From an uncultured Clostridia bacterium (GTDB lineage: Bacteria > Bacillota > Clostridia > Christensenellales > UBA3700), in NCBI GenBank assembly GCA_947176265.1, contig CAMWQA010000002.1, positions 321 to 64,320 on the forward strand: a DNA stretch of 64,000 bases. The letters run 5' to 3'. A program made the position numbers and the translations under genes. This document shows positions 19,809 through 54,972 of the stretch, piece after piece. How positions within the stretch are numbered: the first letter of the stretch is position 1; each line of letters opens with the position of its first letter. The notes beneath the pieces were generated by a model. The model did not search any database. It was not told the origin of the DNA and saw only the letters and a list, made by a program, of their open reading frames with translations.

Positions 19809-19884
19809 ATTTACCTCATAACTAATTACTCTGATTATAGCAGAGAAGAGTACGTAATGATTATTCCCACCTCTACGTTTTTAT

Positions 19885-19913: not shown

Positions 19914-19986
19914 TTATTTAAATATATTATATATTATAAGAAAAGCCTAAAATATCGGGATTTGCCGTCGCTTTTGGCAGCGCCTG

Positions 19987-22742: not shown

Positions 22743-22769
22743 AACAACCTCCGTAATATACTTGTTTTT

Positions 22770-22799
22770 ATTATAGAATACCCAATCGACATTTTGCAA
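22770..22799 (-). promoter_or_regulatory. sigma-A-type promoter of the flavoprotein gene pair
   Basis: Minus strand: TTGCAA (22794-22799), 18 nt, TATAAT (22770-22775). Confidence 0.45.
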
Positions 22800-22809
22800 C
22801 AAAATCAGG

Positions 22810-22849
22810 TAAAATCAAAGGGACGCAACAGATTTCTCCGTTCCGTCCC
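22810..22849 (-). terminator. Possible terminator of the giant-protein operon
   Basis: Minus strand: GGGACG...CGTCCC stem (22820-22849) with a partly paired interior, followed by TTTGATTTTA. The loop is long, so confidence is low. Confidence 0.35.
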
Positions 22850-22888
22850 CAGATAATTGACTGCCTCTCTTTTAGCCCAAACTTGACG

Positions 22889-25800
22889 TTACTTTACTTT
22901 GACGGCTATGGTCACGCTATAGGTAATACCCGCGTTTACCACGTCGTAACTAACGTCGATAGAGTTAAGTTTCTTTGCATTGACGTCTACTGCTACGTTG
23001 ACCTTGCCGTTGACAGCCTTGTCAACGCCCAAGAATACGAGAGTCTCTTTAATATCTGCATTAAAGGTTGCCACGCCGTCATTAATCTCAAATTGCTCGT
23101 TGACGAAATACAAATCGTCAAACTCAAATCCTATGCCGTCCGCGCCGAAAGCCATACTCGACACGTCCAGTCTCGGGTCGATTTCTTCTTTGCCGTTTTC
23201 GTATTTATACAATGACTTGCCGCCCGATTTAACTTCAATCGTCAAGTCGCGATTGCCCGCGGATTGAGAATCTGACTGATATGATGCGATTCTATACAAA
23301 TCGGCTTTAGAAAACTTGCCGTCGTCAACCGGATTGCAACCTGCAAACACCGTCAAGCATACGAGCATTACGGCAACGACTGCAACGATTATTTTGCTTG
23401 CTCTCTTTGCATTGAAGCTGGCTTTCTTGTCGGAGCTAACGACTTGCTCGTCTTCTCTCTTCTTTTTTGCAAAGAACATAAATCCTGCTGCCAATACGCT
23501 TACTCCGCTCATTGAAAGCGCAATAGCCTTTGCCGAGCTGGAAGTCTTACCCGACTTTCCGACAGCCGTAGCGCCTGCCTTTTGAGCGCCTGCGATTACG
23601 GTATTTGCTCCGCGGAGAAGTTGCTCGTAAGAAGCTTGCAACTTAGCGTACTTAGCTTGGTCTATGAAAGCCAAATCGGCTTGAGATACGCTATCGATAT
23701 ACGCAAGGACTTTGCTCTCGTACTCGTCGATATTGGAGAAGTTGATCTTGTCAAATTTTTCAAGCGTGCTCTTTATTGACGATATATCTATACCTGTACG
23801 CAAATTGAAGACTAACTCTTCCGACTGCTTATAGTTGGCTGCCTCGGCAAATCTAACCTTGACAACGTACGGAGTATTTGCTTTAAGTCCTGCAAAGGTT
23901 GCTCTACTAACGTAACCGGCGCCGTCGAAGCTTACTTCCATACCGGATATTTTGCTTGAAAGCGAAATCTGGTTATAATTGACTAATATCTTGATATCGT
24001 CTGCAGAGACTTCGCGGTCAGCCTTCGTAATATAGAAGTCCATAATATACTCGCCTTGGAAGATATTAGAATCTACAGGCGTAACGTGCTTGAAGTATTG
24101 ACCTGCATTTACCAACGGCTCGTCGATTGTATCTCCGTTTTCTATTCTACGAATATACTTTCTAACGTAGAGACCTTCTGCGTCGTTACGCGTATATACA
24201 TATTTACCGTCAACCGTTTCTCTCGTATACTTGCCGTCGTTATCTCTGGCAAGAGCGTCCGCCTCTGCCTTAGTAAGACTCGAGATAGCCACGTATCTGA
24301 ATACTCTAAACTTAAGCGCGTTGAAAATTGTCGTGTTGGAAGTAATAACGCGGAAGTCTTCGTATCTGTCCTGACCGTTGTAAACTTCTTCGGAGCTACG
24401 CAAATTAACGAACTGCTCTATATTTTCGAGGTCTGCGCCGATTACGTGCAAATCGCCCGGGTTAATGGTGACATTGTAGTTGCGGTATCTCGGAACGATT
24501 ATTTGAATAGTGTCGCCGTGATAGCCTTCCGCTTCTTCCGTTATCCAATTGCCGTCTTCATCAAGGAAGTTGGGGTCTTGTTCCAGACCGTTGAATACTA
24601 TTTTAACCACGCCTTGCTTTACGCCGAGGTCTCTATAGTACTCGTCGATATACATCTTAGCTTGGAGATACTCGCCGTCTTGAACGAACTTATGTTTTTC
24701 ATTTTCCTCAGCGTCCTCATTGTCGAAAACGTAGTCGAACGGAGCAAGGTATCTTTCAATATCGTAAGCCATCGCCTCGTCTTGCGTGAAATAGTGGTAA
24801 TCTTCCTCTTCATAATTTGGATGAATACCGCCGTTTTCAGACGCGGGTCTGAGGATAGGCGTCAACGAATCTTCTACGGAATAGATTCTGTATGCAGGCA
24901 AAACGTTGATAGTCACGTCGCGCTTGTTGATCTTCATGATGATTTCAAGACGCGTGTACTCTTCGCCGAATACGATCGTATAGTTTTCGTTGGAAGCGTC
25001 TGATATAAACGCTCTGTAAGTACCTGCGTACGACGGATTTTCCGTAGCCTCTGTAGACATAACTCCGTCGACAATCTCGAAATAGTTGTAGTTGAACTCT
25101 ATCTTATCGTCGCCGAATACCTCTTCTGCAAATTGCGCAATTACGCTGGGTTTGTGGACGTTGCCGTCGTAATCGAATTCTTTGTCGCCCTCCTCAAGCT
25201 CTGCTCCAATTATCGTGAGCGTCTTGGGAACTATAGCAAACTCTGCTTCGTCAACTACGAGCTTATAGTTTTTCTCAGCGCCGTCTTCAGTCTTCTTCAT
25301 CTCAGCGCCGACGAAATACGTATCTACTTTGCTGCCTACTTCCACGTCGCCAAAGTTAGCTTCAAGCTCAATGCCGTCTTTGTTGAAGAGTTCCAAGTCT
25401 TTATCATTCACGACTCTCAACTCGATACATTCAGGCAAATCGTCGCCGTAAATTACGCTGTTGGTATTGAGGAATACTTTTACCTTAACCTCTCTCTCTT
25501 TGATATTGTACAATTCATTATTCGTCACTTCATCGGTCGTGTTGTTGACAATGTTGATGATATAGTTGTTGATTGTATTGTACGTCTTTGAATTTTCATC
25601 TTTAGGATTATACGCGTATACTCTGCCAGTTCTATGATCGACGTCGTCAGGTATAGTGATAGCATACTTACCTACGGACGCATACACTTCCTCAGTACTA
25701 AGCACAGGCTTGAGCACGATATTGTCTTCGGCCGCGAATTCTTTTCCATCCTCCGTCTCCGCGTATTTCCAAGCTCTTACGCTCGGAGAATTTGCATTGC

Positions 25801-29443: not shown

Positions 29444-29458
29444 AATTCTTCCTCCAAA

Positions 29459-32400
29459 TTAAACAATGCCTGCTTTCTTTCTTTTCTTTACCACTACTAT
29501 TGCAGTGACTATCGCGCCAACCATCAATACGCCTACGGCTCCTATTGCAATACCGCCGTATATTGATATCTCTGCGCTGTTGATTTCGCCGACGTCTAAG
29601 TTCCAATATCTATCCAAATAGTAATTGCTATCAGTCAGTACAAGCACAACCGTATATCTTCCGTCCGGCAGTTTGCCGTCTTCATCCAATTCAACGACGT
29701 TGCCCTTTCTGTCGCGATATTGCAAAGCGCACTCGACAGTCGTTCCGTTTTCATCCACGTAATGACCTTTGTATTCGCTGAGGCTTAAACCGCTTGGAAG
29801 CTTTTTAGGCAAGGTATTGCCAATCTCTTTATACGGCAAGAGCGCCTGTCTGATAGTAATGTTGGTCTTGACTACCAAATCTTCATAGTTGGCAGAACTC
29901 AACGTAACTTCGCCGCTATAGTATGACGGACCTACGCCCTCTTCAATACGCACGTTGGTAGCAAAAGCGTTGCCGTCGGTGTTGCCGCTCTTGATAAGTA
30001 CCGTTTCGCCCTTATATTGATACGAACCGTTGCTGTAAACGAGATCGGGACCGGTAAATGTTACGCCGTGTCTTTTACCGTCGTATACGACGTCTACGAT
30101 AGAAGCGCTTATGTTCTCCATTTTAGCCTTTTTGATAACGACCTTAGTCTGCAACTCTTTGGTAGCGTAGCCTGATTTATCAACGGACATATACACGGTG
30201 TATTCTCTTGCGTCTTTGAAGGTAAATTGCTTAAGAGCCTCGTTTACCTCGGTGCCGTCGCAATAAATTATGTTGACGTTGTATTGTAAAGTAACTTTCA
30301 AGCCGGTGTAGTTAAGCAATCCGCCTACCGTAGGCAAGTGATTATTACCGTCATACACAACCTCTACAGGGTTAAAGGTAATACCTGTAAGCTCTGCTTC
30401 ATTGATAACCATAACTACGTCGATAGAGCTTTCATTATAATCGTCGTTGCCGAGATACTTTATTTTATACTCGTATCTTCCCGTCTCGGAGTACCAGCCG
30501 CCGCCCTCGTTAGGTTTTGCAGCGACGTCTTTAAAGGTTCCGTCGGAGTCTTTGTATTGAACTTTTACGACGCCTTCCGCAGGAGAACTTGCCGACCAAA
30601 GCTGCTTATTGCTCGAAGACCTAACCTCTGCGACAGCTTTGACCAAATCAAAGGTAAATTTCTCTGACGTGAAGCTGTAATCCAACACAACTTTTTCCAC
30701 GTTGACTTTCGTCTGCGCGCTTGTAATTACGAGATAGCCCTCAGCGTAATCGTTCTTGGGGAAGAAGTTGGGGTTATCTTTTGTTACAAACTCTACCTTG
30801 ACGAAGTAATAACCTCTTTCCGTCGGATAACTCGTCATAGCGTCATCGCTTACTTTGCCGTACACTTTTCTATCCGCAGCGTTATACACAGCGCCGTCAA
30901 GATACTTGTAATACGTTACTTGTACGTCTTCCTCTTCATAAAGTTCTTTTGACTCTTCAGGGATAATCAAGTCGTATTCTACGTCTCCTTCCGTAAAGTC
31001 TTTTACTCTTAAGCCCGTCTCAATTTCCAACTGTCCTCTTGCTATATTAAACTTGAAGGACGATTGACCGTCGATTTCGTAATTGCCGTCGGGCAAAGAG
31101 AGATTGACAGTATACAATCCTACCGCGCCCAAAGCATTGACCGGCTTGTCATCAAGCGTGTATTCGACGTTAGCCTTTTGAGTTTCGCCGTTGACGTCAG
31201 TATACGTACCGGTAATAGCATGCGTTCTGCCTGCCTTAACGCCTGTAGGTATGTTGCCTATCTCGCCGCCGTCAAATCTCAAATCAACCGAAACTAATTT
31301 GCGTTCTATTTTGATATTCGTAGAATTGACGTTATACTCAATATTATTGTATCCGTTGGGGTTTATACCCTTTACCGCATACTCGCCGAAATTTGCCGTA
31401 GACGAAGCCTGCGTTTCGATTTGAACGGTCACGTATTGATCCGTCTGCTCGACGTATACTTCTATCTCGGTTGGCACTTCGTCTCCGTAATAATAAGTTA
31501 TAGAACCGTTGAAAGCTTCTTGCTCGCTAAGTTCGATAGTGACTTGCAACTTATTGATCTTTGCGTCTATTTCAACGCTCTCCCTGTATGTATCCTCTGC
31601 GACCTCAACGTCTTCGTAGAAATTGATTGCCATCAAATCGGTAAAGTACACGATATAGTTGTAACCGTCAGTGCCTTCCAAAACTACTTGGAAAGACAAC
31701 TTCGTATCTCCCACTTCCGTCGACGCATATTTCAACTGAACGGGAACTATACCTTTGTTGCCCACGTTTATTTTAGGTCTTGAGAACATTCCTGCCGGAG
31801 AATATATTACTCCCAACTTGTGGTCCTCTTCGTCAAAGAAGAAGGGGCTTGTATTAAGTTTTGACAAGTCGGTATAGAACTTGTATTCTTTCTTGCCGTC
31901 ATACTCGTCGGTACCGTCGTATTGCTTGTCAAAGAACTTGGATTTTTCCTCTTCGTCTTGCAAAATTTCCTCAACGGTCTTTGTGACGCCGTTGTCGTCG
32001 ACAAAAATATTGTTAAGATTGGTATCAATATAGATATTGGCAATTCTCAGCCAGATTACGTACGAACCAATTACGTAGTCTTTCTGTGGATCGCCCGCAA
32101 TTACTTCGTCGTACAAACCGACTTCGTTGACCATCTTAAGCTTAAAATCGTCGCCTTTACCGGTAATTACGTCGCCCATATTCCAATCAATGGTAAAGGT
32201 CTTGACTGCTCCGCTATCCGCCGTCGACAAAGTATCGGAAGGTAGCCAAATATCATTGCCTTGCTCGTCTCTTTGATAGCTGTACCAAAGTTTCCAACCC
32301 GACGCGCCGAAATCCGCTCTATAGAATACCGATACGTTTTGAGTACTGTAATTAAATCTACCGGTATTACTGTACGACGTACCCGCAAACTTGAGTTTAC

Positions 32401-35233
32401 CTTGAACTCTGTCAACGTTGAAATGCAAATCTACGGTAGTCGTATTACCGCTTGCGTCCACGTAATACAAACTCATAGGATTGCTGTCGCTTATCGTAAC
32501 CACAACCGCTCTGTCTCCGTCGTTACTTAGGACGGTCTCGTCAATATACGCGCCGGTAGCCGCTATCGCAATACCCGACTTTTTATTATCGCTTACGGAG
32601 AACTTCGCCAAAATTTGATTTTTGGTCCACTGCTTTTGATCGTTTGCAAACTCGTCGTATTGCAACGCTTCCACTTCGTCTTCGGACAAAAGTCTTTCCT
32701 CGCCGTCTTCAATCATATAATACTCGATTTCGCTTACTTCGGGGGCTTCGTTGTCTATGCGCACTGTCACGCTTTCGCTGACTGCTACGACAACATACTC
32801 TCCAGTAAGAGCGTCTTGCTTATATGCGTAGAAGGTATATGACGTACCGTTTTTACCAGTACCTGCAGGCAAAGTGGTTTTATTTACTGTATATCTTGCT
32901 CCGTAGCCCTCTGCCGTAGCGATATTATTGATGAAATTCTTTGCCGAATCTGCGGGGAATACGCCGTTGCGTTGGAACTCAAATCTATCAAAGTCCGTTC
33001 TGCTGTTCATTATGAGTTCGAACGTAACGTATTCTTGCCAGCCGTCCGTAGTCGTAGTGCCATTACCAAACTTGAGTTCGCCTTGCAAAATGGTAAAGAG
33101 ATAATCAGACGTCGGCTGCCAAGCAAGCATTCTCTGCTCTTCGCTGTAATAACCGTACGTGCGTTGGCCGAGTTTTGTTTCAACCTTCATTCTGTACGTA
33201 CCAGGCATATATGCCTGACTAAGCGCAATTTTTTTATCGCTACGCGTGATATTCCACAAACTTTCATTTTTGAATACGTCAGAACTAAACGCAGGATAAT
33301 TTGTCATCGTCACTGTAGGAAGTTGAAGCGGATCGGCAGCGCCATTGTACGGCTTAACTAGTTTACCGTTCTCTCCATTGGTATCGGTATATTCCAAAAT
33401 ACCCATTCTGCCGAATTCATAGTTGTATTTACCGCTTTTTTTAGAAGATATCATATATATCTCCGCATATATTGGGTCGTCAAGAATAAGAGATATGTGA
33501 TTGGACGAATCATTGGCGCTTTCAAACTTACCTGACCAGATAAAGCCGCCGCTGTCGCCCGTATGCATCTTATATTGATAATATGACGCTCCGTTCAAAT
33601 CATAAGCGTCCATCTCGCTCTCGCTGAAATCGTCGTGACCGTCGGCAACTATATGTACTCTTATATCGAAAGCCGGATTCTCCATATCAAATTTTGCCGT
33701 GATATATCCGCCGTCCGTCGTTGGATTGATTTCCACCCAATTCTTAAATTTCATAGCGGAATCCAATACGAATTTTCCGTCGCTTGCCTTAAAGTGTTCT
33801 ATTTGACAAAAACCTGCATTTGGATTTACATTGGTTTCCGCCAACGTCTCTAAGCTATAGAGTAATGCAACGCTCAAAATGTTATCGTCAGTACCGACCG
33901 CGCCGAAAAGCGAACCGAACGTTTCTTTCGAATTATTGTCCATATTAGTAAATCTACTGCCTGTCCAAGACGAGATGATACCTTGTATCTGTCCGTATTG
34001 CAATTGCGGATCTTCATTGTCGCCGTAACAGTCCAAAATAGACATATTGCCGCCAATCTTAACGCAGCCTCCTACAACTCCTCCGGCATAAATCTTGAAA
34101 TATGCCGCCTTAGGAGCTCTGTTGCCAAATGCCTTGACAGCTCCCGTACCCGTCAACGCGCAATAAGTGATTTTTCCCGTACCGGAGTCAAGATTGCCGA
34201 CGAGTCCGCCTGCAACGGCAAAACTGGTACGGTCATCGGTAGAAAGTCCGCCCTGTCCTTGCGCTCCTGCAAAAACTCCAGTGCCGCTTGCGAGATCCAC
34301 CCAACAGTTGTTTATAACGCTGTTGTTTTCTGCTCTGCCGGCAATAGCGCCTGCGTAACAGCCGTTTTCAAGATACCATCCGTGTTTAGTACCCTCTTTC
34401 TTTACTACGGTAAAAGCGCTGGTAACGTTGAGTTTTACGTTGTCAATTGAACCGCCGTATCCGTTGAGTCCCGTGATGATACCTGCGCAAAGCATTCCCT
34501 CTTGACTGGAGAGTATCTTATTTGTGGCATCCATACCCAAAGCGCCGATTACGTCTTTTCCCGTTTGACCTTTATCCGCCTCTATATTAGTGTGAGGAGA
34601 GTTATAATTTATAGTACAGTCCTTAATCGTGCCGTAGTTTTGAGCAACCAAAAAGCCTGTGTATTCATACCATACGTTTGTACCGTCATATTTTTCGCCT
34701 TGTCTTCCGTACGTTGCTCTTGTCTCATCGGTAACAGCGGTAATTTTATCGCTGTCATTTGTTCCGCCGGCATTTCCAGATCCGCCGTAGATATTTATCG
34801 TATAACCGTTGCCGTCCAAGACGCGTCCCGACTGAAAAATGGCGTTGGAACTGTTGACGTTTACCCTATCGTATCCTGATCTATCGGAGTTGTAAGAAAG
34901 ATAAACGTCTTTAGTCAAAAAGCCTACTTTCCTATTCACGATGCCATTGAGGAAGTTATACAGCTCGGCTCCGGTTGATATTTGATATATATTGGAATCA
35001 GCCAAATTATCATATTTTTGTCTCATATCCGCCAATTGTAAATGAGCCGCAGTGGTACCGTTTTCGCCTTGATATTCTGCCTTATACAAAGTGCCTGCGG
35101 CGGCTTGCGCCTTAGGTTGGGAGTTGGATAAATGCATTACCCCAACCAAAGCCAGCGCAAGCGCCACTATTATGGCAACTGATATTAGGCTAATTCTTTT
35201 CAAAGTCTTTTCTTTCATCTGATTTTCCCCCAT
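29459..35233 (-). CDS. Giant surface protein 3 (1924 aa): GLUG/beta-helix-like head, Ig/MBG-like repeats, C-terminal TM anchor
   Basis: Signal peptide ending PKAQAAAG. LDGNGYTINI and AGGLVGNLDSGTGKITYC / AGGVVGGCVKIGGN motifs. YDGNNHLP and YDGKRHGV modules. C-terminal segment GGIAIGAVGVLMVGAIVTAIVVV followed by KKRKKAGIV. The start ATG at 35233 overlaps the upstream stop (TAATG); an ATG at 35218 with GGGGGA upstream is an alternative. Confidence 0.9.
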   Translation of the reverse strand: MGENQMKEKTLKRISLISVAIIVALALALVGVMHLSNSQPKAQAAAGTLYKAEYQGENGTTAAHLQLADMRQKYDNLADSNIYQISTGAELYNFLNGIVNRKVGFLTKDVYLSYNSDRSGYDRVNVNSSNAIFQSGRVLDGNGYTINIYGGSGNAGGTNDSDKITAVTDETRATYGRQGEKYDGTNVWYEYTGFLVAQNYGTIKDCTINYNSPHTNIEADKGQTGKDVIGALGMDATNKILSSQEGMLCAGIITGLNGYGGSIDNVKLNVTSAFTVVKKEGTKHGWYLENGCYAGAIAGRAENNSVINNCWVDLASGTGVFAGAQGQGGLSTDDRTSFAVAGGLVGNLDSGTGKITYCALTGTGAVKAFGNRAPKAAYFKIYAGGVVGGCVKIGGNMSILDCYGDNEDPQLQYGQIQGIISSWTGSRFTNMDNNSKETFGSLFGAVGTDDNILSVALLYSLETLAETNVNPNAGFCQIEHFKASDGKFVLDSAMKFKNWVEINPTTDGGYITAKFDMENPAFDIRVHIVADGHDDFSESEMDAYDLNGASYYQYKMHTGDSGGFIWSGKFESANDSSNHISLILDDPIYAEIYMISSKKSGKYNYEFGRMGILEYTDTNGENGKLVKPYNGAADPLQLPTVTMTNYPAFSSDVFKNESLWNITRSDKKIALSQAYMPGTYRMKVETKLGQRTYGYYSEEQRMLAWQPTSDYLFTILQGELKFGNGTTTTDGWQEYVTFELIMNSRTDFDRFEFQRNGVFPADSAKNFINNIATAEGYGARYTVNKTTLPAGTGKNGTSYTFYAYKQDALTGEYVVVAVSESVTVRIDNEAPEVSEIEYYMIEDGEERLLSEDEVEALQYDEFANDQKQWTKNQILAKFSVSDNKKSGIAIAATGAYIDETVLSNDGDRAVVVTISDSNPMSLYYVDASGNTTTVDLHFNVDRVQGKLKFAGTSYSNTGRFNYSTQNVSVFYRADFGASGWKLWYSYQRDEQGNDIWLPSDTLSTADSGAVKTFTIDWNMGDVITGKGDDFKLKMVNEVGLYDEVIAGDPQKDYVIGSYVIWLRIANIYIDTNLNNIFVDDNGVTKTVEEILQDEEEKSKFFDKQYDGTDEYDGKKEYKFYTDLSKLNTSPFFFDEEDHKLGVIYSPAGMFSRPKINVGNKGIVPVQLKYASTEVGDTKLSFQVVLEGTDGYNYIVYFTDLMAINFYEDVEVAEDTYRESVEIDAKINKLQVTIELSEQEAFNGSITYYYGDEVPTEIEVYVEQTDQYVTVQIETQASSTANFGEYAVKGINPNGYNNIEYNVNSTNIKIERKLVSVDLRFDGGEIGNIPTGVKAGRTHAITGTYTDVNGETQKANVEYTLDDKPVNALGAVGLYTVNLSLPDGNYEIDGQSSFKFNIARGQLEIETGLRVKDFTEGDVEYDLIIPEESKELYEEEDVQVTYYKYLDGAVYNAADRKVYGKVSDDAMTSYPTERGYYFVKVEFVTKDNPNFFPKNDYAEGYLVITSAQTKVNVEKVVLDYSFTSEKFTFDLVKAVAEVRSSSNKQLWSASSPAEGVVKVQYKDSDGTFKDVAAKPNEGGGWYSETGRYEYKIKYLGNDDYNESSIDVVMVINEAELTGITFNPVEVVYDGNNHLPTVGGLLNYTGLKVTLQYNVNIIYCDGTEVNEALKQFTFKDAREYTVYMSVDKSGYATKELQTKVVIKKAKMENISASIVDVVYDGKRHGVTFTGPDLVYSNGSYQYKGETVLIKSGNTDGNAFATNVRIEEGVGPSYYSGEVTLSSANYEDLVVKTNITIRQALLPYKEIGNTLPKKLPSGLSLSEYKGHYVDENGTTVECALQYRDRKGNVVELDEDGKLPDGRYTVVLVLTDSNYYLDRYWNLDVGEINSAEISIYGGIAIGAVGVLMVGAIVTAIVVVKKRKKAGIV

Positions 35234-38200
35234 TAACCCATCTGATTGTCAAGTACGTGGATCTTCATCGTACAAGTCTGGGCAATATCTCCGCTACATA
35301 CGGTTACTTCGACTTCCATTGCGCAGTCTGCAACTTCTTCAGCTGTGGTAATTACGTGATTGAGGTTCTTTCTCAAGTCGGTAATTACCATACTGCCTTC
35401 GGCGTCTTTGCTCCATCTGAGCGTAGCGGCATTCGTAGTATCGTACTTTATCTTCGTAAGATCAAGCGTAACGTCGTATTTGCCAGAAGTACCGTCGTCA
35501 AAGATGACGGTTCTGCTAAGCGTCAGCTTTTGGGTCGCCTTTGCAGTTTCGCTCAAGTTAGTTCCGCCGACCATGATATACTCTACGTCGCCCGAAATAG
35601 TAACCGCTTTCTTGGCTTTCACTTCAACTATGACTTTGTATTCCTTATTGAAGTTGGAGTTGCTAGCCTGCACGGTAGTTCTTACGGTGTAATAATCGGC
35701 AATACTGTAGTTGATTTCCGACAAGTTCCATACGATTGGCACGTTGAAGTATTCATAAACTTCCGCCGATTTAATCGTAATAGACTCGCCGTTGGTTGCA
35801 ACGAAGTCTTTGATATATTCAATATCAGTCTCCGTCTGGGTCAAAGTCTTGCCGTCTTGCTCATACGTGATCACGTATTTCAAGAAAGTCTTATTGACTT
35901 TTGAGATATTTGCCGACGCAACTTTTCTACCCACGATTTGATATGTCGCAAGATCGATCGTACCTACGCTTTGATACAAATTGGTATTGTCTGCGTAGAC
36001 GTCGTAAAGTCTGTTGCCTCTCTCGTCCATAGTATATATGTACGGGTCAATAGCCATTTCCGTCAATTCAGACTTGAGATTATTTCTGTCGATAATCTCC
36101 ACGTTGATGTCAAACGAGTACTGGTCATTGAGCTTAAGCGTAGCCGTAAGGTTCTTTCTGCCCTTCATGGTTATCGCAAAGTTTCTCTTCCAGTGGCTGT
36201 CGTTGACTTTGAGTACGGATGTCTTTCCGCTCATATATTTTACAGTTACTTCGCTTGGGAACGGCTCCATTCCGTAATACAATACCTGAACAGGATCGAT
36301 ATAGAATGTTCCGCCCATAAGTTCGCTACCTGCGACCATGATGCCTGCAGGCACACGGTTCTCAACTTGAACGTTGACGAACTTCTCTTGCAAGAGAGTG
36401 CCGTTGATTTGGCTGTACTCTACTATTTCGCCCGTACGAGTGTACGTGTCAATGTCAAAGCCTATTACTACTTCAAACTGTCTGAATTGAGCAGGTCTAT
36501 CCGGATTGATAATAAAGTCTTCAAGTCCCTTCCAAGCAATCGGCATATAGTATACCGCGCCGTTGGTAAACTGAACGTAAGCGTGGTCAGGGAAGTTCTT
36601 AACTCCTTCGCCGTTGATGATATATTGGAACGGATCTATGAAGAGCGCCGACTGCGTCAACTTCTCGTCAAAGTAGACTGCTTCGACCTCGTTTCTCAAT
36701 ACCGCTACCTGCGTCTTATTGAACGTCCAAGTAAACGAACTGTTTGGATAAGCTTCCTTGTCCAACGTAATTTCGACTTGATTTACTTGGTCGTTGTTGT
36801 TGTTCCAATCGAATAAGACGTTGTTCATCTTTCCCCAAGCGACGTGAACGTCCTCGTTGTACTCTTCTTTGATGGTCTTTTGATTGGTTGCGCTCTCCGC
36901 CTTATTAGGATCATACTTCGGATTTGCGTACTCGTCGAGATAGTTTGCTTCAACAACGCTCGGGAACGGATTTTCATCGCTCTCGCCTATCATATACATA
37001 TAGTATTTATATGGATCGATATTGATAGTATTTACAGCGTCGTTTATCGTCAACGAATATACTTTCTTTGTCTTAACGACGAAGGTCAACTCAACCGTCT
37101 GCGGAGCTTTTCCGTCGAATGCGGCAATTTTAGACGTGATTGTAAACTGACCGCCGCTTACGTCCGTAGAATATCCGTTTACGAGTTTTCTGCCAAAGAG
37201 GTTTTGCTGAGCCTCTTGGGTATTCCAACCGCCAATTACGTCAAGTCCGACAGCCTTACCGTCAGGATACTTGAAGAAGAGCGTCTCCGGAGTATAATCC
37301 TCAATGCTTGAAGCATTGGCATTTTCGTCTCCGATATTGATATTGAAATCGTACAAGTTAATGTTGACTTCGGTACCCTCAGTGCCGTCGATTATTATTT
37401 TGTCTATGGTACTGTCGAGATAGTGTATCGTCAACGGCAACTTAGCGCCGTTCTTGAAAGCAACGGTAGCTTCGACGTCGTGCTCCTCATATTTCGTCGG
37501 TCTCCAACCTGATACCGACAGATATTGAGTATTGATCTTTTGAGTCTTGCCGTCGTTGGTAACGATAGTCAAGAAGTCAGGCAACGAATCGTCGTAAGCG
37601 TGCATCTCTATGTCTTCAATTGACTTGAGACCGCCGCCGTCGCTACGCGGGTCAATGGATATCTTCAACTCTTTATGTATTCCGCCCGAGAAGTCGGCAA
37701 TTGCTTTTACTTTAAATTCTTTACCTCTATTCAACATTGCTTTAAGGTTTGCGGCAACCATATTTTGCTCGTCTTCGCCGTTCATAATCTTAAAGACAAC
37801 GTTGGCTCTCATGATAGTAGTACCCTTTTGGTAAATAGCTACCTTCTTTTCGAAATTGGTTGCAATAAGTTCATTGACGCCTGCGTCGATTGACGAGTAG
37901 ATATACGGTATGAAGGTAATATCTACCGGTATATCCGCCCAAGTCACGAGACCGTTGTTTTCGCCGTCAGCCGTAGATTCTCCAACGCTCTTTGAAGAGT
38001 TGTAGATAAATATCTCCGTGAAGTATCCGGGGTTGTCTTTAGCAGCGGAGTTGCCGCCTCTGGAGTCTCTGCCCTTGTCGTACGCTATACCCTTATTCGG
38101 GTCGTTATCTATATAGATATGTTCGCCTTTATCCTGTCCTTTGAAGTGGATATTGGATATAGTCGCGTCAACCACGTTGATTTCAAGCGTAGCCGTATTC

Positions 38201-41200
38201 CATACCGCAAACGGCAACAAACCTGATACTATCTGTCTTACTTGATAGAATATATCGCCTAACATCCAATCTAAAGCTCCCAGCGCGCCTGCCGCGGTGC
38301 CTTGACCGATACCTCTCAAGAAGCTTTGGAGCAAAGGCACGATGACTTCTCTTAAATCGCCCCAGAAAGTATTGCTCTTGCCTTTAGTGCCGTAAATTTC
38401 TCTTGTCCAAGTGACCATACCGAGATAGTCCTTGTCAAACATATCGGGTGCCATCTTTTGCAGATTGACTATTGATTCGTGGCCGGTATTTTTTGCAAAT
38501 ACGTGGCTCATAATATCGTCAATAAGTTTATTTATAAGATATACGTCGAAATTAATCGTAACATTGAAAGTTCCGTTGGCTCTAAGATTGAGCATTATAC
38601 CTCTCTCGCCAAGCAGCTTGACTATGTCAAGTTCTGCAAATACCTTTGCAAGTCCCGTAGGCTCTTCGCCGGCAGCAGGCTCGGCAGCGTACGTGGAAGG
38701 TTCGCCGCCCAAAGAAACTTGCGCCGCGTCATTATTGCCCAAATTATCGAGCGCGCCGTCTATAGTCGAGAACAAATTGTCGATTACAGGCGCCAACATG
38801 CCTACGAGATCCAAATCTATATATTGCATGCCCACCGTATCGCCGATATCGATACCTGCAACCGATACGAGATTGGAACAAATCGCCAACGTCAATTGAC
38901 CAGAAGTCTTTCTGTGGTCAAGTACGATATATACGAGCGGATCTGCGCTTGCATTTTTGGATTGATTGTCGTCGTACATTGCCTTGTTGATATGCGCGAG
39001 CGTAACTACGAAAGTGCCTTGCGGAGCAGTAGGAGTTCCCTTGACGTTTGTAAGTTTCTTACCTGCAGAAGCCGTGACTTTCTCGATGATGATTCTCGTA
39101 TACATCTTGTAGTCGTCGGATACTGTGTCTTTGTTAGAACCTTCAAGGTCAACCGTGTCGCCCGTAAAGTTGGCAAGGTCGATGGTAAAGCCTATATCGA
39201 GATTGTTGAGCAACGTCGTCGTAAATTCTTTTCCGCTTGCCGCATTCCAGTCGGGCACGTCGTCAAAGTTGATAGGTATATTGACCGGTTTACCCAGCGA
39301 CAAACTGAGCGTCAAATCCATAAAGACGTCTTCTACTTGGAAGCCCATCTTGAAACTGTCTCCAAATAGGTCGAATACGCCGTCCAATCCGAGGTTGAGT
39401 CCAAGATTGATGCCAATCAAATCGTTGAGCATACCGTTGATGATAGAAGACGTGAAGTCGATTACGATTGCCGTATTCTCCAAATGGATAGCTTGCGTCA
39501 AATACTTGACGAAATCTTTGATTTCCAAGCCTTCGCCAATCGTAGCGACGCCGCTGTCAGCTGCAACTTCCTCATTCAAAGCAAGTTTGTCTGTGCCTTC
39601 GGGAGATGCGCCTACCGTCGGCAAACCTGCATTCTTCAACAAATCGTTAATTATGTCGTTGAGGTCAAAATTGCCTATATTCTTTATGAGACCGTCTACC
39701 ATCGTAAATACCTTGGTAACTATCGTCGAATTGACGATTTCGCCGCTGAACAAGCCAAGACCCGTAAGATCGATGATTATGCTGTTACGGTGTATATACA
39801 ATCCCAAAATGTTCTTCAGACCGTACTTCAATTCAAGCGATATCTTGCTGTTGGAGAATCTTGTCAAATCAAGGTCCCAAGATATTGCAAGCTGAACTTG
39901 AGCGTTCCAATCGTCAAGGTCGAGGTACATCGGTAAATCGAGTTTCTTGCCCGCGTTTGCCAAAACGTTGTTAATCAAACGCGTGAGGTTCATCTCGTTG
40001 TCAAGAGTTTGAAGGTCAATATCAAGCACTACGGAAGCTCTTCCTACCGTGTCGAGAATTGCGTCTATCAAATCAGACTTAAAGTCGTTAAATTCTTGCG
40101 ATTTCTCCTCGATAGGATACTTGTGTTCCCCGAGATCGCCCACGATTACCGGATTGTCTGAAGTACCTGCCGAGAATACGAGATGCATATTGCTGCCGTA
40201 GTTATACTTCTTAGTCGTATAATAAACTACGTCAGGATTAGGTTTTTTCTCGTCAGCAGGTTTATCTTTGATATTTCTGTATACCTTGCCTGCCTCTTTT
40301 GCAATAGGCTCGCCTTTTGCGTCAAAGTAGTATACTGCCTCTCCGTTCTCGTCGAGTTTAGGTATAAAATCTCCGATAAGTTTAAAGATAAAGCCGTCTT
40401 TTCTGCCAAGTTCAACTGTCAAATCCACTTCCATAAGGCTGAGCGCCTCTGCAAGAGTATTGCCCAAATCGGTATTGGCTGCGCTTAGTAATGCAAGTAT
40501 AGACGCCAAAGATATAGACGGTATGAATTTATCGGTATTGAATGCAAATATTATTGCTTGAGCGGGATCGATTTCTCTCGCCTGAGCGTAAGTCGCAATA
40601 CCCGAGGTATTCTGCGTCGCGCCGTCAGCGCTTTGAGTTGCTACCTGAGAATTAAGTCCAAGCAATTCTTTAAAGTCAAGCTCAAATTTCAAATCTCCGT
40701 CCTGTACGTTGATTTTGGTAAGCAAATCTCCTACTACGTTGTCAAGTAACGAGTATATCAAATCAGTGAAGTTGAGCGAGAAACTCAATTTCGGCAATAC
40801 GATACCTGCAATATTGAAATTAGAGATATCTATATAAATATTATTATTATATCCGTATATACCCAACAATACTTTATTAGGCTCTATAATCTGATGGTTG
40901 CCTACTTTGATACCGCTTTCCGTCTTCATCTCCAAGACTATCATTGATTTTGCCGTATCTGTCTTATTGAGGGCAATTTGCAAGTTGAGCGAAGCGTCGA
41001 GAACAAAGTCGTTGTCAAACGTCCACAAAATCTGAGAATTCTCTACTTCTTGCACTCCAAAACCTGCAATAAACGGCGCAAGGTCATAAGTACCCTTATC
41101 AAAATTCATTGTAAATCCGCTGCTGAATCTAATACCGCCTAGTACATGGTCGATTACGCCGTTGAGCGACGTGAGATAATCCTCTCCGCTGCCCACTCTG

Positions 41201-43194
41201 CTGTCTATGTAATCCGCCAAATCGTCGTCTTTTAATCCGATAAAGAAATCGCCGATTGAAAGAGCAATCGCAAGCGCAGGATCGGTAACTATAATCGTGC
41301 CATTGCTATTCTCCGGATCGGGCACTTTAGACGTATTATTGAGCGTCGTGCTGACAGAAACGCTGTCAAGTCCAACTTCCGAAGTATTGATTGACAATAC
41401 TATATCGCCGATTTCTTTTGGCAAAGATATCGTTTTCAAAGCGGGTATAAGACCGCCAAGCGTTTCGAAGAAATTGTCGTTGACGACCAACTTTATACTT
41501 GCTCCGTCTACGAAGATATTGGGTTCTTGGACGACTACTCCGTCTTTAATTTTTTCATTCAAGCCCAATAGCTTTGCTATTGCGTCTACAAAATTGCTGA
41601 TACCTGCCGATAGCTTAAAGCTTCCGTCGTCTTCGGTAGCGAGGGCAACGACGCTTGCGCTAGTAGTAGAAAGTACTTTTTGCACTGCGGACATACTTGA
41701 GAGATTGAGCGAACCGTTATCGTTTACGGTAAGTTCGCTCTTGCGAAGTCCGGCAAAGTCAAGTCCGAATACTCCGTCGATAGCGTCGGTAATGAGATCT
41801 ACGAGATAATCAACCAAGTCTGTAAGACTTGCGTCGAGTTTTATGTTGAGACCATTGAGATAATTGGGCAACATATTATCCGTGTTGAGGTAGAAACTGC
41901 CTTCCGTATAATAGATTCCCATTTGAGGCTTGCTCTCAACGGGTACGCCGTCTGTATTGATAAGGAATAGTTCGATAGCAATCTTATTATTGTCTACCGG
42001 TAATTTGTCGTAGTTGAGGTCGAGATCGATCTTGAAAGCAAGTCTTATTCCAGTGCCGCCCTGCACGAGTATCAGACCTTCGGGTATTCTGAAAGTCGTA
42101 GACGCGCCGAGGAAGCTGTTGATCAATTTACCTAAGTCTAATCCTTTTTGATGACCTTCTTCGTCTTTGACGGAATCAACTATCAAGTCGATTGAGAATT
42201 GCAAATTGGTAAAGCTGAATTCAGATATAGCTCTGTCCGCCAAGTCTCCGGGCAAGCCTATATCCAAATCTGCGGTGTTGCGTATTTGGAAGAACAAGTC
42301 GATGTCAAACGTCTTGTCTTTACCTCCTGCGCTTTCTCCGCTCAAACCTGCTCCTGCAAAACTACCGTCGCTTGCGAATTGAGCGTCTATATACATGGTG
42401 TCATCGGGAATTAAATTAGCAATATAAGAAATAATAGGCTCAATGTCAATAGGGAGTTGTACGAGCGAGCCAATCAAACCTGCAGCTTTGCCTAAAAGCC
42501 CCTTAAGCTTCATTTCCATCCTTATTGTTTGGGAATTATCGTCATTATTAGTCACTACAGGTTGTTCAAAAAGCAAACCGAATACCATGTCAAGGTAGCC
42601 TGTAATATCAATTGTACCCAAGAGGTCTCCGACTTTATCGCCTGCGCCCTGCACTAATTGGACGACGTAATTGAAATCAAAATCAGACAAATAGATGAGC
42701 GGAGTCGTGCCGTCTGCCAAATCTATGTAAATCTTGTCGTTGACTATATAAATAGCAAAAACCAACTGCTTTTGCGTATTTGCAACGGAACTCTTTTGCT
42801 GTTGATAAACGGCAAGGCAAAGTTCGTTGCGAATTTCGTTGTAGAAATTGCCCTTCAAGTTTATAGTCGTAATCTTATCTTTGATATCGGCTTTGACCTC
42901 GATATCAATATTGAGAGCCTGCTCGGGCACTTCAACGGATTCTATAATCTTGTTAAACACGCCCATAGGATCCAGTGTAACTACTACAGGCGGCTTTGGT
43001 TTTGTTCCAATAAGAGGATCATCGGGATTATTAGGATCTTCTATTGGGCCTGGGTTTCCACTTTCAATCGGTTTATTTCCGCTTTCCCCATTGTTACCGC
43101 CGCCATTAGGCTTACAGGCAACGAGCGTCGTGAGCAGAGCAATCGCCAAAACTGCTATCAACACGAATACGGTAATTAACTTGGTCTTTTTCAT
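35233..43194 (-). CDS. Giant lipoprotein 4 (2653 aa): about 1650-aa uncharacterised beta-rich/helix-punctuated region + Big_4-like Ig modules
   Basis: Lipobox LLTTLVAC followed by a G/N/P-rich linker. The long N-terminal part has recurring LxDxLxxxLG-type helices. The C-terminal third has modules of the type FPSEVTVKYMSGKTSVLKVNDSHW and LPDFLTIVTNDGKTQKINTQYLSVSGW. GAGGGA RBS at 43198-43203. Confidence 0.9.
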   Translation of the reverse strand: MKKTKLITVFVLIAVLAIALLTTLVACKPNGGGNNGESGNKPIESGNPGPIEDPNNPDDPLIGTKPKPPVVVTLDPMGVFNKIIESVEVPEQALNIDIEVKADIKDKITTINLKGNFYNEIRNELCLAVYQQQKSSVANTQKQLVFAIYIVNDKIYIDLADGTTPLIYLSDFDFNYVVQLVQGAGDKVGDLLGTIDITGYLDMVFGLLFEQPVVTNNDDNSQTIRMEMKLKGLLGKAAGLIGSLVQLPIDIEPIISYIANLIPDDTMYIDAQFASDGSFAGAGLSGESAGGKDKTFDIDLFFQIRNTADLDIGLPGDLADRAISEFSFTNLQFSIDLIVDSVKDEEGHQKGLDLGKLINSFLGASTTFRIPEGLILVQGGTGIRLAFKIDLDLNYDKLPVDNNKIAIELFLINTDGVPVESKPQMGIYYTEGSFYLNTDNMLPNYLNGLNIKLDASLTDLVDYLVDLITDAIDGVFGLDFAGLRKSELTVNDNGSLNLSSMSAVQKVLSTTSASVVALATEDDGSFKLSAGISNFVDAIAKLLGLNEKIKDGVVVQEPNIFVDGASIKLVVNDNFFETLGGLIPALKTISLPKEIGDIVLSINTSEVGLDSVSVSTTLNNTSKVPDPENSNGTIIVTDPALAIALSIGDFFIGLKDDDLADYIDSRVGSGEDYLTSLNGVIDHVLGGIRFSSGFTMNFDKGTYDLAPFIAGFGVQEVENSQILWTFDNDFVLDASLNLQIALNKTDTAKSMIVLEMKTESGIKVGNHQIIEPNKVLLGIYGYNNNIYIDISNFNIAGIVLPKLSFSLNFTDLIYSLLDNVVGDLLTKINVQDGDLKFELDFKELLGLNSQVATQSADGATQNTSGIATYAQAREIDPAQAIIFAFNTDKFIPSISLASILALLSAANTDLGNTLAEALSLMEVDLTVELGRKDGFIFKLIGDFIPKLDENGEAVYYFDAKGEPIAKEAGKVYRNIKDKPADEKKPNPDVVYYTTKKYNYGSNMHLVFSAGTSDNPVIVGDLGEHKYPIEEKSQEFNDFKSDLIDAILDTVGRASVVLDIDLQTLDNEMNLTRLINNVLANAGKKLDLPMYLDLDDWNAQVQLAISWDLDLTRFSNSKISLELKYGLKNILGLYIHRNSIIIDLTGLGLFSGEIVNSTIVTKVFTMVDGLIKNIGNFDLNDIINDLLKNAGLPTVGASPEGTDKLALNEEVAADSGVATIGEGLEIKDFVKYLTQAIHLENTAIVIDFTSSIINGMLNDLIGINLGLNLGLDGVFDLFGDSFKMGFQVEDVFMDLTLSLSLGKPVNIPINFDDVPDWNAASGKEFTTTLLNNLDIGFTIDLANFTGDTVDLEGSNKDTVSDDYKMYTRIIIEKVTASAGKKLTNVKGTPTAPQGTFVVTLAHINKAMYDDNQSKNASADPLVYIVLDHRKTSGQLTLAICSNLVSVAGIDIGDTVGMQYIDLDLVGMLAPVIDNLFSTIDGALDNLGNNDAAQVSLGGEPSTYAAEPAAGEEPTGLAKVFAELDIVKLLGERGIMLNLRANGTFNVTINFDVYLINKLIDDIMSHVFAKNTGHESIVNLQKMAPDMFDKDYLGMVTWTREIYGTKGKSNTFWGDLREVIVPLLQSFLRGIGQGTAAGALGALDWMLGDIFYQVRQIVSGLLPFAVWNTATLEINVVDATISNIHFKGQDKGEHIYIDNDPNKGIAYDKGRDSRGGNSAAKDNPGYFTEIFIYNSSKSVGESTADGENNGLVTWADIPVDITFIPYIYSSIDAGVNELIATNFEKKVAIYQKGTTIMRANVVFKIMNGEDEQNMVAANLKAMLNRGKEFKVKAIADFSGGIHKELKISIDPRSDGGGLKSIEDIEMHAYDDSLPDFLTIVTNDGKTQKINTQYLSVSGWRPTKYEEHDVEATVAFKNGAKLPLTIHYLDSTIDKIIIDGTEGTEVNINLYDFNINIGDENANASSIEDYTPETLFFKYPDGKAVGLDVIGGWNTQEAQQNLFGRKLVNGYSTDVSGGQFTITSKIAAFDGKAPQTVELTFVVKTKKVYSLTINDAVNTINIDPYKYYMYMIGESDENPFPSVVEANYLDEYANPKYDPNKAESATNQKTIKEEYNEDVHVAWGKMNNVLFDWNNNNDQVNQVEITLDKEAYPNSSFTWTFNKTQVAVLRNEVEAVYFDEKLTQSALFIDPFQYIINGEGVKNFPDHAYVQFTNGAVYYMPIAWKGLEDFIINPDRPAQFRQFEVVIGFDIDTYTRTGEIVEYSQINGTLLQEKFVNVQVENRVPAGIMVAGSELMGGTFYIDPVQVLYYGMEPFPSEVTVKYMSGKTSVLKVNDSHWKRNFAITMKGRKNLTATLKLNDQYSFDINVEIIDRNNLKSELTEMAIDPYIYTMDERGNRLYDVYADNTNLYQSVGTIDLATYQIVGRKVASANISKVNKTFLKYVITYEQDGKTLTQTETDIEYIKDFVATNGESITIKSAEVYEYFNVPIVWNLSEINYSIADYYTVRTTVQASNSNFNKEYKVIVEVKAKKAVTISGDVEYIMVGGTNLSETAKATQKLTLSRTVIFDDGTSGKYDVTLDLTKIKYDTTNAATLRWSKDAEGSMVITDLRKNLNHVITTAEEVADCAMEVEVTVCSGDIAQTCTMKIHVLDNQMG

Positions 43195-43232: not shown

Positions 43233-43266
43233 ATTTTAGAATATAAACCTTAAACATACCTTAAAC
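43233..43266 (-). promoter_or_regulatory. Activator-type promoter candidate: two 11-bp-phased GTTTAAGGT repeats replacing the -35, plus a TAAAAT -10
   Basis: Plus-strand ACCTTAAAC at 43247-43255 and 43258-43266. Minus-strand TAAAAT at 43233-43238, 8 nt downstream of the proximal repeat. No TTGACA-like hexamer lies at the proper distance. Confidence 0.4.
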
Positions 43267-43390: not shown

Positions 43391-43412
43391 ATAAATTTTA
43401 CATAAATTTTAC
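43391..43412. promoter_or_regulatory. Exact tandem duplication of an 11-mer (ATAAATTTTAC x2), possible regulator binding site
   Basis: 43391-43401 and 43402-43412 are identical. It lies 43 nt downstream of the response-regulator stop and about 200 nt upstream of the giant-operon start codon. Confidence 0.4.
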
Positions 43413-43454
43413 ATTTGAATTATTAAAAGTTTCTTAAAATAGAATAAATATATC

Positions 43455-44138
43455 TCAATCCGACGCGGCAGATTTTGCGTCCGACCACATGTATCCCAAG
43501 TTTTTTATAGTCTTGAGATATCCTCCGCAACCGTAACTTTCCAGCAATTTTCGTAATTTCGACATATACACTTCAATGACCGTGATGACGGTCTCGCTGT
43601 CAAGTCCCCATATTTTATTGAAAAGTTGATCTTTGGAAACGATGATATTACGGCTGCGTATAAGACATTCCAAAATATCATATATTTTGCCCGACGTCTT
43701 AACGTATTCCCCGTTGATTTTGAGCATCTTGCTGTTGTAATCCAGCTCTATGCCGTCGTTGACGTACTTGCTGTAGAAGTTATCGTTATAACGACGGAGT
43801 ATTGCTTCGGCTCTTGCCAAAAATTCCTCTCTGTGAAAAGGTTTTACAATATAGTCGTCTGCGCCTGCCCGCAGACCTTCAATCCTTTTTTCGACGGTAC
43901 TGAGCGCAGAAACAATCAAAATTGGACAGTTGCTCTTTTTCCTCAAAGCCCTTATTATCTCTATTCCGCTCTTTTTAGGCAATATCAACTCCAAGACGAC
44001 TAGGTCGTACGCCTTAGCCTCTGCCATATACAATCCGTCTATGCCGTCGTATGCGCTTTCGCAACTTCCCAACTTGCTAAGCGTTTCGACGATACTTTGA
44101 TTGCTTTTATTGTTGTCGTCAATAACCAAAAACTTCAT
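43455..44138 (-). CDS. OmpR/PhoB-family response regulator, atypical (Glu at the phospho-acceptor position), orphan
   Basis: 227 aa. Receiver domain (VIDDN..., LVVLELILP, ILIVSALS, DDYIVKPF) plus a winged-helix output domain (IYDILECLI...VIEVYMSKLRKLL...TIKNLGYMW). Codon 50 is GAG at 43989-43991. AGGTGA RBS. Confidence 0.85.
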   Translation of the reverse strand: MKFLVIDDNNKSNQSIVETLSKLGSCESAYDGIDGLYMAEAKAYDLVVLELILPKKSGIEIIRALRKKSNCPILIVSALSTVEKRIEGLRAGADDYIVKPFHREEFLARAEAILRRYNDNFYSKYVNDGIELDYNSKMLKINGEYVKTSGKIYDILECLIRSRNIIVSKDQLFNKIWGLDSETVITVIEVYMSKLRKLLESYGCGGYLKTIKNLGYMWSDAKSAASD

Positions 44139-54970: not shown

Positions 54971-54972
54971 AA

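Follow-up and report, generated by a model that had tools for sequence, protein, structure and literature searches.

A regulator-linked operon of three giant membrane-anchored proteins in uncultured Christensenellales

Three giant genes, here called A, B and C, lie one behind the other on the minus strand of a 64,000-nucleotide stretch of contig CAMWQA010000002.1, from an uncultured Clostridia bacterium of the Christensenellales; the whole stretch is referred to below as the window. Our results support a dedicated, vertically inherited and regulator-controlled operon of three membrane-anchored giants that function together. We see an even chance that this module is a lineage-specific surface system of the Christensenellales in which the three giants act jointly, the likeliest form being a fibrillar adhesin or surface-coat assembly.

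Within the human gut microbiota, Christensenellales rank high both in heritability and in association with health, yet most of their lineages are uncultured and their surface biology is little known. Approximately 20 kb of small genomes (one carrier record is 1.8 Mb) is spent on three unannotated proteins with their own regulator, an investment suggesting that the module probably has a central part in the contact of these cells with their surroundings.

Gene structure of the operon

The preliminary description of this DNA had reported three contiguous minus-strand open reading frames (ORFs) that form one expression unit. All three were found, at 35233-43194 (2653 aa), 29459-35233 (1924 aa) and 22889-29443 (2184 aa), and the operon is laid out as follows.

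35233..43194, minus strand: gene A, giant lipoprotein of 2653 aa (ORF plus homologues, no Pfam or NCBIfam match)
29459..35218, minus strand: gene B, type I membrane giant of 1919 aa (1924 aa if the start is at 35233)
22889..29443, minus strand: gene C, 2184 aa, with signal peptide, head, MBG-type stalk, transmembrane hairpin and fused lipoprotein-like domain
22810..22850 (approximate), minus strand: intrinsic-terminator-like hairpin, GGGGACGG...CGUCCC followed by UUUGAUUUU, approximately 40 nt past the C stop codon

The A/B junction reads GGGTTAATGGGGG, i.e., TAATG, so the bases of the 1-nt overlap reported earlier are indeed present. However, the public annotation and all B homologues place the start of B at the second ATG (MKEKTL, 35218), just before which lies GGGGGA. 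B therefore probably begins 5 codons downstream of the first ATG, and the overlap becomes a gap of 14 nt. With either start the junction is tight. The gap between B and C is 15 nt with GGAGGA inside, exactly as described, and both gaps carry Shine-Dalgarno-like sequences. Terminator-like sites inside the operon number 13 on both strands versus 18.2 expected, with 4 on the coding strand, and the hairpin after C has a fold z-score of -2.78 and a centroid structure that is itself a hairpin. The tight junctions, the lack of excess internal terminators, and the single promoter (see below) and single terminator on the flanks support the proposed single transcription unit, with a predicted transcript of approximately 20.4 kb.

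The three products together comprise 6,761 residues, or approximately 32% of the window's coding capacity. With a fourth giant ORF (5489-12025, 2178 aa) the total is 8,939 codons, 41.9% of the window, in line with the share of about 42% calculated before. Full-length homologues exist for each of A, B and C, showing that the ORFs are real genes and not chance.

Distribution, linkage and conservation

A survey of one genome per GTDB species yielded 43 loci with A homologues, labelled Christensenellales, Christensenellaceae, 'uncultured Christensenella', Candidatus Ornithoclostridium or unclassified Clostridia metagenome-assembled genomes (MAGs). Rather than being scattered and unlinked, which would have spoken against the preliminary description, the homologues lie in the order A-B-C in 30 of these loci; the remaining 13 are cut by contig ends (4), belong to a paralogous cluster (7) or carry a fused giant, whose ORF exceeds 6,780 aa and begins like A (2). 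Wherever the sequence is long enough the order holds, from 73% down to 27% identity of A, and blastp identifies the neighbours in relatives as true B and C homologues. Contigs with A at 39%, 32% and 27% identity all carry an OmpR-type regulator, A, B and C, with a kinase added in the most distant. The outer flanks differ among the relatives' loci (order regulator(-kinase)-A-B-C in L002-L006).

Fewer homologues are detectable for B and C than for A because B and C diverge faster; C is 28% identical at the divergence where A is 39%. A and B are evenly conserved along their whole length with few indels, and all three proteins are collinear. This collinearity and even conservation argue for a constrained architecture rather than free repeat expansion.

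In the window, the module is flanked by housekeeping genes (MazG, Dus, SpoVT and a SpoVB-like flippase). Directly downstream of C (18147-22802) are genes for an HI0933-like flavoprotein, an FAD-dependent protein and a BspA-type LRR_5 surface protein, and the same three genes follow C in the same order in L051 (21659-25406), where A is 41% identical; this shared order points to long-range vertical inheritance. In the species-representative scan, the module is absent from named cultured Christensenella. A mobile-element or phage origin was considered and rejected, as tblastn with A gave no match in plasmid and phage collections. In one locus (L003, 6503-8701), genes for a reverse transcriptase (RVT_1) and a phage XhlA take the place of the usual neighbours immediately upstream of the regulator, and may represent a prophage end or a diversity-generating retroelement beside the module.

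Anchors and domain content

Searches with Pfam (E up to 10) and NCBIfam (E up to 1) returned nothing above threshold in the 6,761 residues of A, B and C. Neither database finds an LPXTG, SLH, CWB/choline-binding or LysM anchor, confirming what the preliminary description had noted by eye; the only trace of wall anchoring is a match to the LPXTG_anchor model at E = 0.94, which reflects the first transmembrane segment (TM1) of C. The membrane tethering proposed instead holds up, with a lipobox in A and transmembrane segments in B and C. Sequence searches of the PDB with profiles of A and of B, and with C by itself, gave nothing beyond a designed beta-trefoil (E = 0.033). Domain hidden Markov model (HMM), PDB and profile searches thus place the giants in no characterised adhesin family. 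A Tc-toxin-like or RHS-type three-giant operon was rejected since none of the domains of such systems is present. In blastp comparisons among the four giants of the window and of their internal repeats, only the heads of B and C are related to each other.

Protein A, a predicted lipoprotein with a repeated core

A starts with a KKTK n-region, a hydrophobic core and LVAC, which conforms to the lipobox pattern [LVI][ASTVI][GAS]C. The cysteine is invariant in all 22 aligned homologues, so the earlier call of a lipoprotein stands, with Cys27 as the predicted lipidation site of a textbook signal. In the same alignment, the lipobox is followed by a low-complexity linker rich in G, P and N, a strongly conserved core and a C-terminal third:

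43114..43125, minus strand: lipobox LVAC of A (Cys27), Cys kept in 22/22 aligned homologues
38020..42915, minus strand: core of A, residues ~94-1725, predicted tandem modules of ~250 aa, each a LolA-like half-barrel plus helix
35236..38019, minus strand: C-terminal region of A, residues 1726-2653, Big_4-like immunoglobulin-like (Ig-like) domain array

Homologues of A number 72 in a collection of 5.8 billion proteins, nearly all of them full-length (2436-3007 aa) and reaching down to 26% identity. The only Pfam families recorded for any of them in precomputed annotation are Big_4 and Flg_new. The Big_4 assignment fits the C-terminal third, which shows a recurring 'IDPY...PFP..V.V.Y.DG....V.W' pattern of the Big_4 Ig-like type and in which hhalign relates blocks within 1850-2375 to one another with probabilities of 85-94%.

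The core has no Pfam, NCBIfam or PDB sequence match and does not belong by sequence to the curated LolA, LolB or LppX families. We obtained an AlphaFold2 (AF2) model of residues 80-1250 from 60 sequences, with a mean predicted local distance difference test (pLDDT) score of 68 and a predicted TM-score (pTM) of 0.60, in which helices alternate with stretches of long beta-strands. The high-probability Foldseek matches to this model (0.97-1.0) are all half-barrels of the LolA superfamily: Porphyromonas gingivalis LolB, Helicobacter pylori LolA, mycobacterial LprF, MucB, Staphylococcus aureus SAOUHSC_02783 and ependymin. The PDB entries matched at this level include 9tpm, 4egd, 4qa8, 6jau, 8i34 and 9gtx, and the target-normalised TM-scores are 0.28-0.43. 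The model thus has the open half-barrel that typifies the LolA/LolB/LppX superfamily. By hhalign, blocks 316-600, 640-880 and 1000-1240 are mutually homologous (probability 78-98%), and this, together with the LolA-like model, suggests that the core consists of tandem modules of approximately 250 aa. There are at least four in the modelled part and probably six in all, those in residues 1250-1725 being extrapolated. A comparison of the model with the BFVD viral fold library gave no meaningful match.

When 1.84 billion representative proteins were searched exhaustively with an HMM profile of the A core, only 77 clusters were retrieved, all of them giants or fragments of giants, and ten of the most distant members have no Pfam domain beyond one weak Big_4 match. 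The A core is a narrow, unannotated protein family. One member, a protein of 7,116 aa (P0106), contains 15 stretches matched by the profile, and the two ORFs exceeding 6,780 aa that begin like A (L047, 9335-30193; L049, 9440-29788) run off the fetched DNA. As judged from these sequences, the A-core module can be multiplied to give much larger proteins.

Protein B and the related heads of B and C

B has an N-terminal signal peptide (AQA|AA) and a C-terminal membrane anchor that is kept in the B proteins of L002, L004 and L005.

29489..29557, minus strand: C-terminal transmembrane anchor of B, residues 1893-1915, then a KKRKK tail; hydropathy 2.74
33899..34981, minus strand: head region of B, glycine-rich GLUG-like repeats, homologous to the C head

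For B, the claimed signal peptide and C-terminal transmembrane segment with a K/R-rich stop-transfer sequence are therefore both correct; the anchor of C is not simply terminal, as described in the next section. The N-terminal approximately 400 residues of the two proteins are related (B 5-425 versus C 3-399, 24% identity, E = 4e-5) and contain a repeated glycine-rich motif, GG[IV][AV]G...I.N, that resembles GLUG. The GLUG family itself (PF07581) is detected in 4 of 12 B/C head regions at a best E of 0.0063, below the gathering threshold. We describe the heads as GLUG-like and infer a beta-solenoid fold for them.

The AF2 model of B residues 41-1240 (pLDDT 74) shows a head of short periodic strands, a low-confidence region at approximately 494-603 and then a series of beta-sandwich domains. 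Foldseek matches to this model are tandem Ig-like arrays, including the ice-binding adhesin MpIBP, the extender region of a large adhesion protein, invasin, FdeC, the S-layer proteins Sap and SbsB, a pentameric S-layer protein and mastigonemes. The low-confidence region (approximately 33410-33740) coincides with the only PDB sequence match, the B profile weakly matching the designed beta-trefoil over profile positions 513-581; this trace may point to a lectin-like insert.

A fused lipoprotein-like domain in C and its counterparts in a paralogous cluster

B and C had been described as giants of the GLUG/MBG type. Within the window, this label is only weakly borne out, and for GLUG it was too confident: MBG_2 scores 15.3 bits in C against a cut-off of 25, and GLUG reaches E = 5.7. 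By contrast, MBG domains are significant in homologues, i.e., in C of L006 (MBG_3), in C of L051 (MBG_2) and in the first giant of L028 (five MBG_3 domains, E = 5.9e-35). The MBG-type repeats sit in the C-terminal halves of the proteins, sub-threshold in the window. Conservation of C peaks in the final, membrane-proximal 380 residues, which contain three elements:

23471..23527, minus strand: TM1 of C, residues 1973-1991, then KKKRED
23333..23392, minus strand: second hydrophobic segment of C, residues 2018-2036, with internal lipobox VFAGC (Cys2036)
22892..23338, minus strand: C-terminal 148-aa domain of C, homologous to the stand-alone small lipoproteins of the paralogous cluster

In order, the tail consists of TM1, KKKRED, a short loop, KRASK, IIVAVVAVMLVCLTVFAGC, the lipobox VFAGC and the 148-aa domain. 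The internal lipobox is preceded by a positively charged n-region and a hydrophobic h-region in the in-to-out orientation of a lipoprotein signal. It is kept as VFAGC or VFAAC in 7 homologues (P0092-P0096 and the C proteins of L050 and L051), and the whole arrangement of TM1, KKKR, loop, lipobox and domain persists in close homologues and in the clade at approximately 40% identity (L050, L051). Cleavage of C at Cys2036 by signal peptidase II is topologically consistent and would be a possibility.

The paralogous cluster (L028, L030, L039, L041 and L042; e.g., L039 460-22541) occurs within some of the same genomes and has the order transmembrane-anchored giant, small lipoprotein, A', transmembrane-anchored giant, small lipoprotein. 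Its first giant contains five MBG_3 domains and YDG, A' contains Flg_new, and the A' promoters have degenerate TTAAN repeats with an 11-bp period. The small ORFs of approximately 160 aa start with ordinary lipoprotein signals (LTAC, ASAC). A profile of the C family matches the 172-aa ORF after the second giant of L039 (E = 2e-5), a profile of the C tail alone matches the ORF at the same position in 5 loci (E = 1e-3 to 3e-3), and alignment of the C tail with the small ORFs brings the lipobox cysteines into register. A small lipoprotein is therefore fused in C and separate in the paralogous cluster, and this pattern of fusion and fission is our strongest indication that the components act as functional partners.

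A private regulator and its promoter

Upstream of A, on the same strand, are a response regulator gene and a set of repeats and promoter elements:

43455..44138, minus strand: response regulator gene, OmpR/PhoB family (Pfam Response_reg 8.7e-21, Trans_reg_C 1.4e-15)
43233..43265, minus strand: regulator-dependent promoter overall, box plus -10 upstream of A, within the 260-nt regulator-A region
43248..43265, minus strand: direct repeat TTTAAGG-N4-TTTAAGG, 11-bp period, at the -35 position; candidate regulator box
43233..43238, minus strand: -10 hexamer TAAAAT, 9 nt downstream of the repeat box, with a like hexamer at the same spacing in homologous loci
43395..43437, minus strand: upstream repeat element, TTAAG-N6-TTAAT then TGTAAAAT twice, 11-bp period, just after the regulator stop codon
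44191..44220, minus strand: putative sigma-70-like promoter of the regulator gene, TTGATT-18-TATAAT with TG, from a consensus scan alone

The regulator has the receiver and winged-helix Trans_reg_C architecture of the OmpR/PhoB family and shares 54-65% identity with the regulators that precede A homologues. The core of the box, TTAAG-N6-TTAAG, has a single match in the 64-kb window. It lies 66-106 nt upstream of the A start, beside a -10-like hexamer, in 30 of 30 regulator-linked loci, with a background elsewhere of 0.0036 per kb. In the three loci that lack the regulator (L014, L036 and L037) the box is absent (0/3) and a canonical TTGAC-17-TATAYT promoter is found instead. The box thus replaces the -35 element in all the regulator-linked loci examined, and its geometry relative to the -10 matches that of PhoB/OmpR-family activators; the dedicated regulation suggested in the preliminary description is supported. 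The TGTAAAAT repeats of the upstream element recur in close loci and in distant, kinase-linked ones, preceded in the close loci L007, L009, L011 and L021 by an exact TTAAG-N6-TTAAG, and the element may serve as a further regulator-dependent promoter or in autoregulation.

No histidine kinase gene lies next to the window regulator, which has Glu at the position of the phospho-acceptor Asp (YDLVVLELILP). Loci with an adjacent kinase keep the acceptor Asp in 17 of 17 cases (YDLI[IV]LDL[LM]LP), the window and its kinase-less relatives carry Glu, and a third clade is kinase-less but has kept Asp. Where present, the kinase has two transmembrane segments around an external loop of approximately 120 aa. 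Asp-to-Glu substitutions are partly activating in several well-studied regulators, and by analogy the window operon may be constitutively on. Kinase control, an orphan Glu-regulator and a regulator-less canonical promoter look like a natural series toward constitutive expression.

Comparison with known systems

In the fibrillar-adhesin survey of Monzon et al. 2021 (PMC8286594), transmembrane anchoring was proposed and tested for proteins whose anchor was unknown, and transmembrane regions were found in approximately 20%; like A, B and C, fibrillar adhesins are long multidomain surface proteins with a stalk of repeated beta-sandwich domains and a distal head. Both an elongated stalk array (Ig-like in B, MBG in homologues, Big_4-like in A) and a surface anchor are present here. 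However, whereas repeat number varies in known fibrillar adhesins, A, B and C are collinear, of constant length and devoid of a recognised adhesive domain. They are also three genes obligately linked with each other, one of them encoding a giant lipoprotein, and with a dedicated regulator. As judged by predicted fold, B and C are fibrillar-adhesin-like, while A is new in joining tandem LolA-like modules and an Ig-like array in one lipoprotein.

Staphylococcal Ebh/Embp are megadalton-scale, Sec-exported, rod-like proteins that end in a transmembrane segment and a positive tail instead of LPXTG. B has the same arrangement, but Ebh/Embp are single genes of FIVAR/GA-type helical repeats without a lipoprotein partner or an adjacent regulator, and no relationship to A, B or C is found by sequence or Pfam. 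The S-layer proteins Sap of Bacillus anthracis and SbsB of Geobacillus stearothermophilus are likewise surface chains of Ig-like domains; the module differs in having no SLH or other wall-binding domain, the match probabilities are low, and no feature here indicates a lattice.

The A core shares its open half-barrel and helical element with LolA/LolB, LprF of the LppX-LprAFG family, MucB/RseB, SAOUHSC_02783 and GerS, of which LolB, LprF and GerS are lipoproteins, as is A. The known proteins are single domains of approximately 200 aa, whereas A strings such modules, as modelled, into a 1,650-aa core of a 2,653-aa protein. The regulator and its box resemble PhoB/OmpR at the pho box in the winged-helix fold, in 11-bp-period direct repeats replacing the -35 and in the distance of approximately 10 nt from the -10; they differ in the TTAAG repeat and the regulon and, in the window clade, in the missing kinase and the Glu at the acceptor position.

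In none of these categories does a giant lipoprotein of several LolA-like modules occur together with two transmembrane-anchored giants, a small lipoprotein that is fused or encoded nearby, and a regulator of its own. We found no published description of a three-giant system of this kind in the literature on Christensenellales giant, MBG or adhesin proteins. As a general category, large surface proteins are well known from gut Firmicutes; the A-core family is new and the internal lipobox unusual.

Proposed function and alternatives

We propose that the regulator would bind TTAAG-N6-TTAAG at the -35 position and activate the A promoter as PhoB does at the pho box. In the window clade, with the kinase lost and Asp replaced by Glu, activation would probably be independent of phosphorylation. 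All three products carry signals for presumed Sec export. A would be lipidated at Cys27 and stay on the outer face of the membrane, its approximately 1,650-aa core serving as a scaffold or docking platform with the Ig-like array pointing outward. B and C would be held by their near-C-terminal stop-transfer segments, with Ig-like and MBG stalks running through the wall and the glycine-rich heads at the distal end. The C tail would re-cross the membrane and present the small lipoprotein domain or, after cleavage by signal peptidase II, release it. The role of this putative assembly as a fibre, adhesin or scaffold is suggested by fold resemblance and by co-inheritance.

Several observations weigh against this proposal. 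All carriers of the module are uncultured MAGs. Pfam and NCBIfam recognise no adhesive (ligand-binding) domain in A, B or C, and the GLUG and MBG matches in the window are below the family thresholds. The LolA-like assignment is made on a model of medium confidence (pLDDT 68) with modest TM-scores (0.28-0.43). Finally, Asp-to-Glu can activate or inactivate other regulators, making the direction of the change uncertain here.

An unlikely but serious alternative is that A, B and C are independent adhesins that share a promoter, each with its own ligand and forming no complex. B and C do look like ordinary fibrillar adhesins, with a head, an Ig-like or MBG stalk and a membrane anchor, C evolves faster than A (28% versus 39%) as adhesins often do, and surface-protein genes are commonly clustered in gut Firmicutes. 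However, adhesin repertoires usually vary between close relatives, whereas the order and content of this module are constant down to 27% identity of A, with near-constant lengths and few indels. Moreover, the paralogous cluster again joins an A-like lipoprotein, two transmembrane-anchored giants and small lipoproteins.

Somewhat less probable still, in our judgement, is a membrane-anchored coat or scaffold that replaces an S-layer and covers or stiffens the envelope rather than binding a target. The Foldseek matches of B do include Sap, SbsB and a pentameric S-layer protein, the genes that take up nearly a third of the coding capacity are evenly conserved, and the regulator and promoter of the clade have apparently drifted toward constitutive expression; without SLH- or CWB2-type anchors, membrane anchors would take over that job. 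Against this, the S-layer matches have low probabilities (0.38-0.87) and are generic Ig-like arrays, no lattice-forming domain is recognised, the sensor kinase that was ancestrally in control (17 loci) suits a conditional role more than a permanent coat, and the scan of species representatives places the module in no named cultured Christensenella.

A more ambitious version of a joint assembly is a long shot. The module would then be an envelope machine of a kind not seen before, in a single-membrane cell: a three-subunit assembly of fixed length in which the half-barrels of A form a continuous hydrophobic track. Lipids or lipoproteins, among them the small lipoprotein that is cut from C, would move along this track away from the membrane, on a scaffold provided by B and C. 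If true, it would be comparable in function to bridge-like lipid-transfer or Lol/Lpt systems while being built from unrelated parts, and C, with its internal lipobox, would be a natural polyprotein that signal peptidase II cleaves.

We give little credence to the related idea that A carries or channels a hydrophobic ligand or lipid, with LolA-like cavities passing acyl chains, lipoproteins or glycolipids outward and B and C as structural partners. The best structural matches of A are to lipid- or lipoprotein-binding folds (LolA, LolB, LprF and MucB), the modules are repeated in tandem, and there are a second lipobox and a small lipoprotein partner. However, we know of no outer lipid layer in these bacteria that could receive the cargo, and A has no sequence membership in the LolA, LolB or LppX families. 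In addition, the LolA-like fold alone does not imply lipid handling, since a preprint describes the Clostridioides difficile LolA-like lipoprotein GerS as an allosteric activator of an amidase (bioRxiv 10.1101/2025.01.13.632879).

That the ORFs are an artefact of a mis-assembled contig, decaying or non-coding, has a negligible probability: although the source is a MAG, the same three genes recur, intact and at full length, in dozens of assemblies that different studies produced independently, there are no internal stops, and a 1.8-Mb record titled 'chromosome: 1' (L024) has complete A and B, with C reaching the end of the fetched stretch.

With its strict conservation, its regulatory series and the evidence of fusion, the module is a well-defined target. 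The A-core family with its 77 clusters, a clean pair of promoter and regulator, the natural series from kinase control through the orphan Glu-regulator to a constitutive promoter, and a rare internal lipobox with evidence of fusion and fission all offer handles.

Other features of the window

The fourth giant (5489-12025, minus strand, 2178 aa) has a signal peptide, DUF6273 at residues 280-364, a transmembrane cluster at 1721-1795 and a K/E-rich tail of approximately 380 aa. It is unrelated to A, B and C by blastp and lies outside the conserved module. A low-GC island at 53996-57469 (0.34 versus approximately 0.43 elsewhere) encodes a type II restriction-modification system in which a BpuJI-like endonuclease lies between two C5 cytosine methylases.

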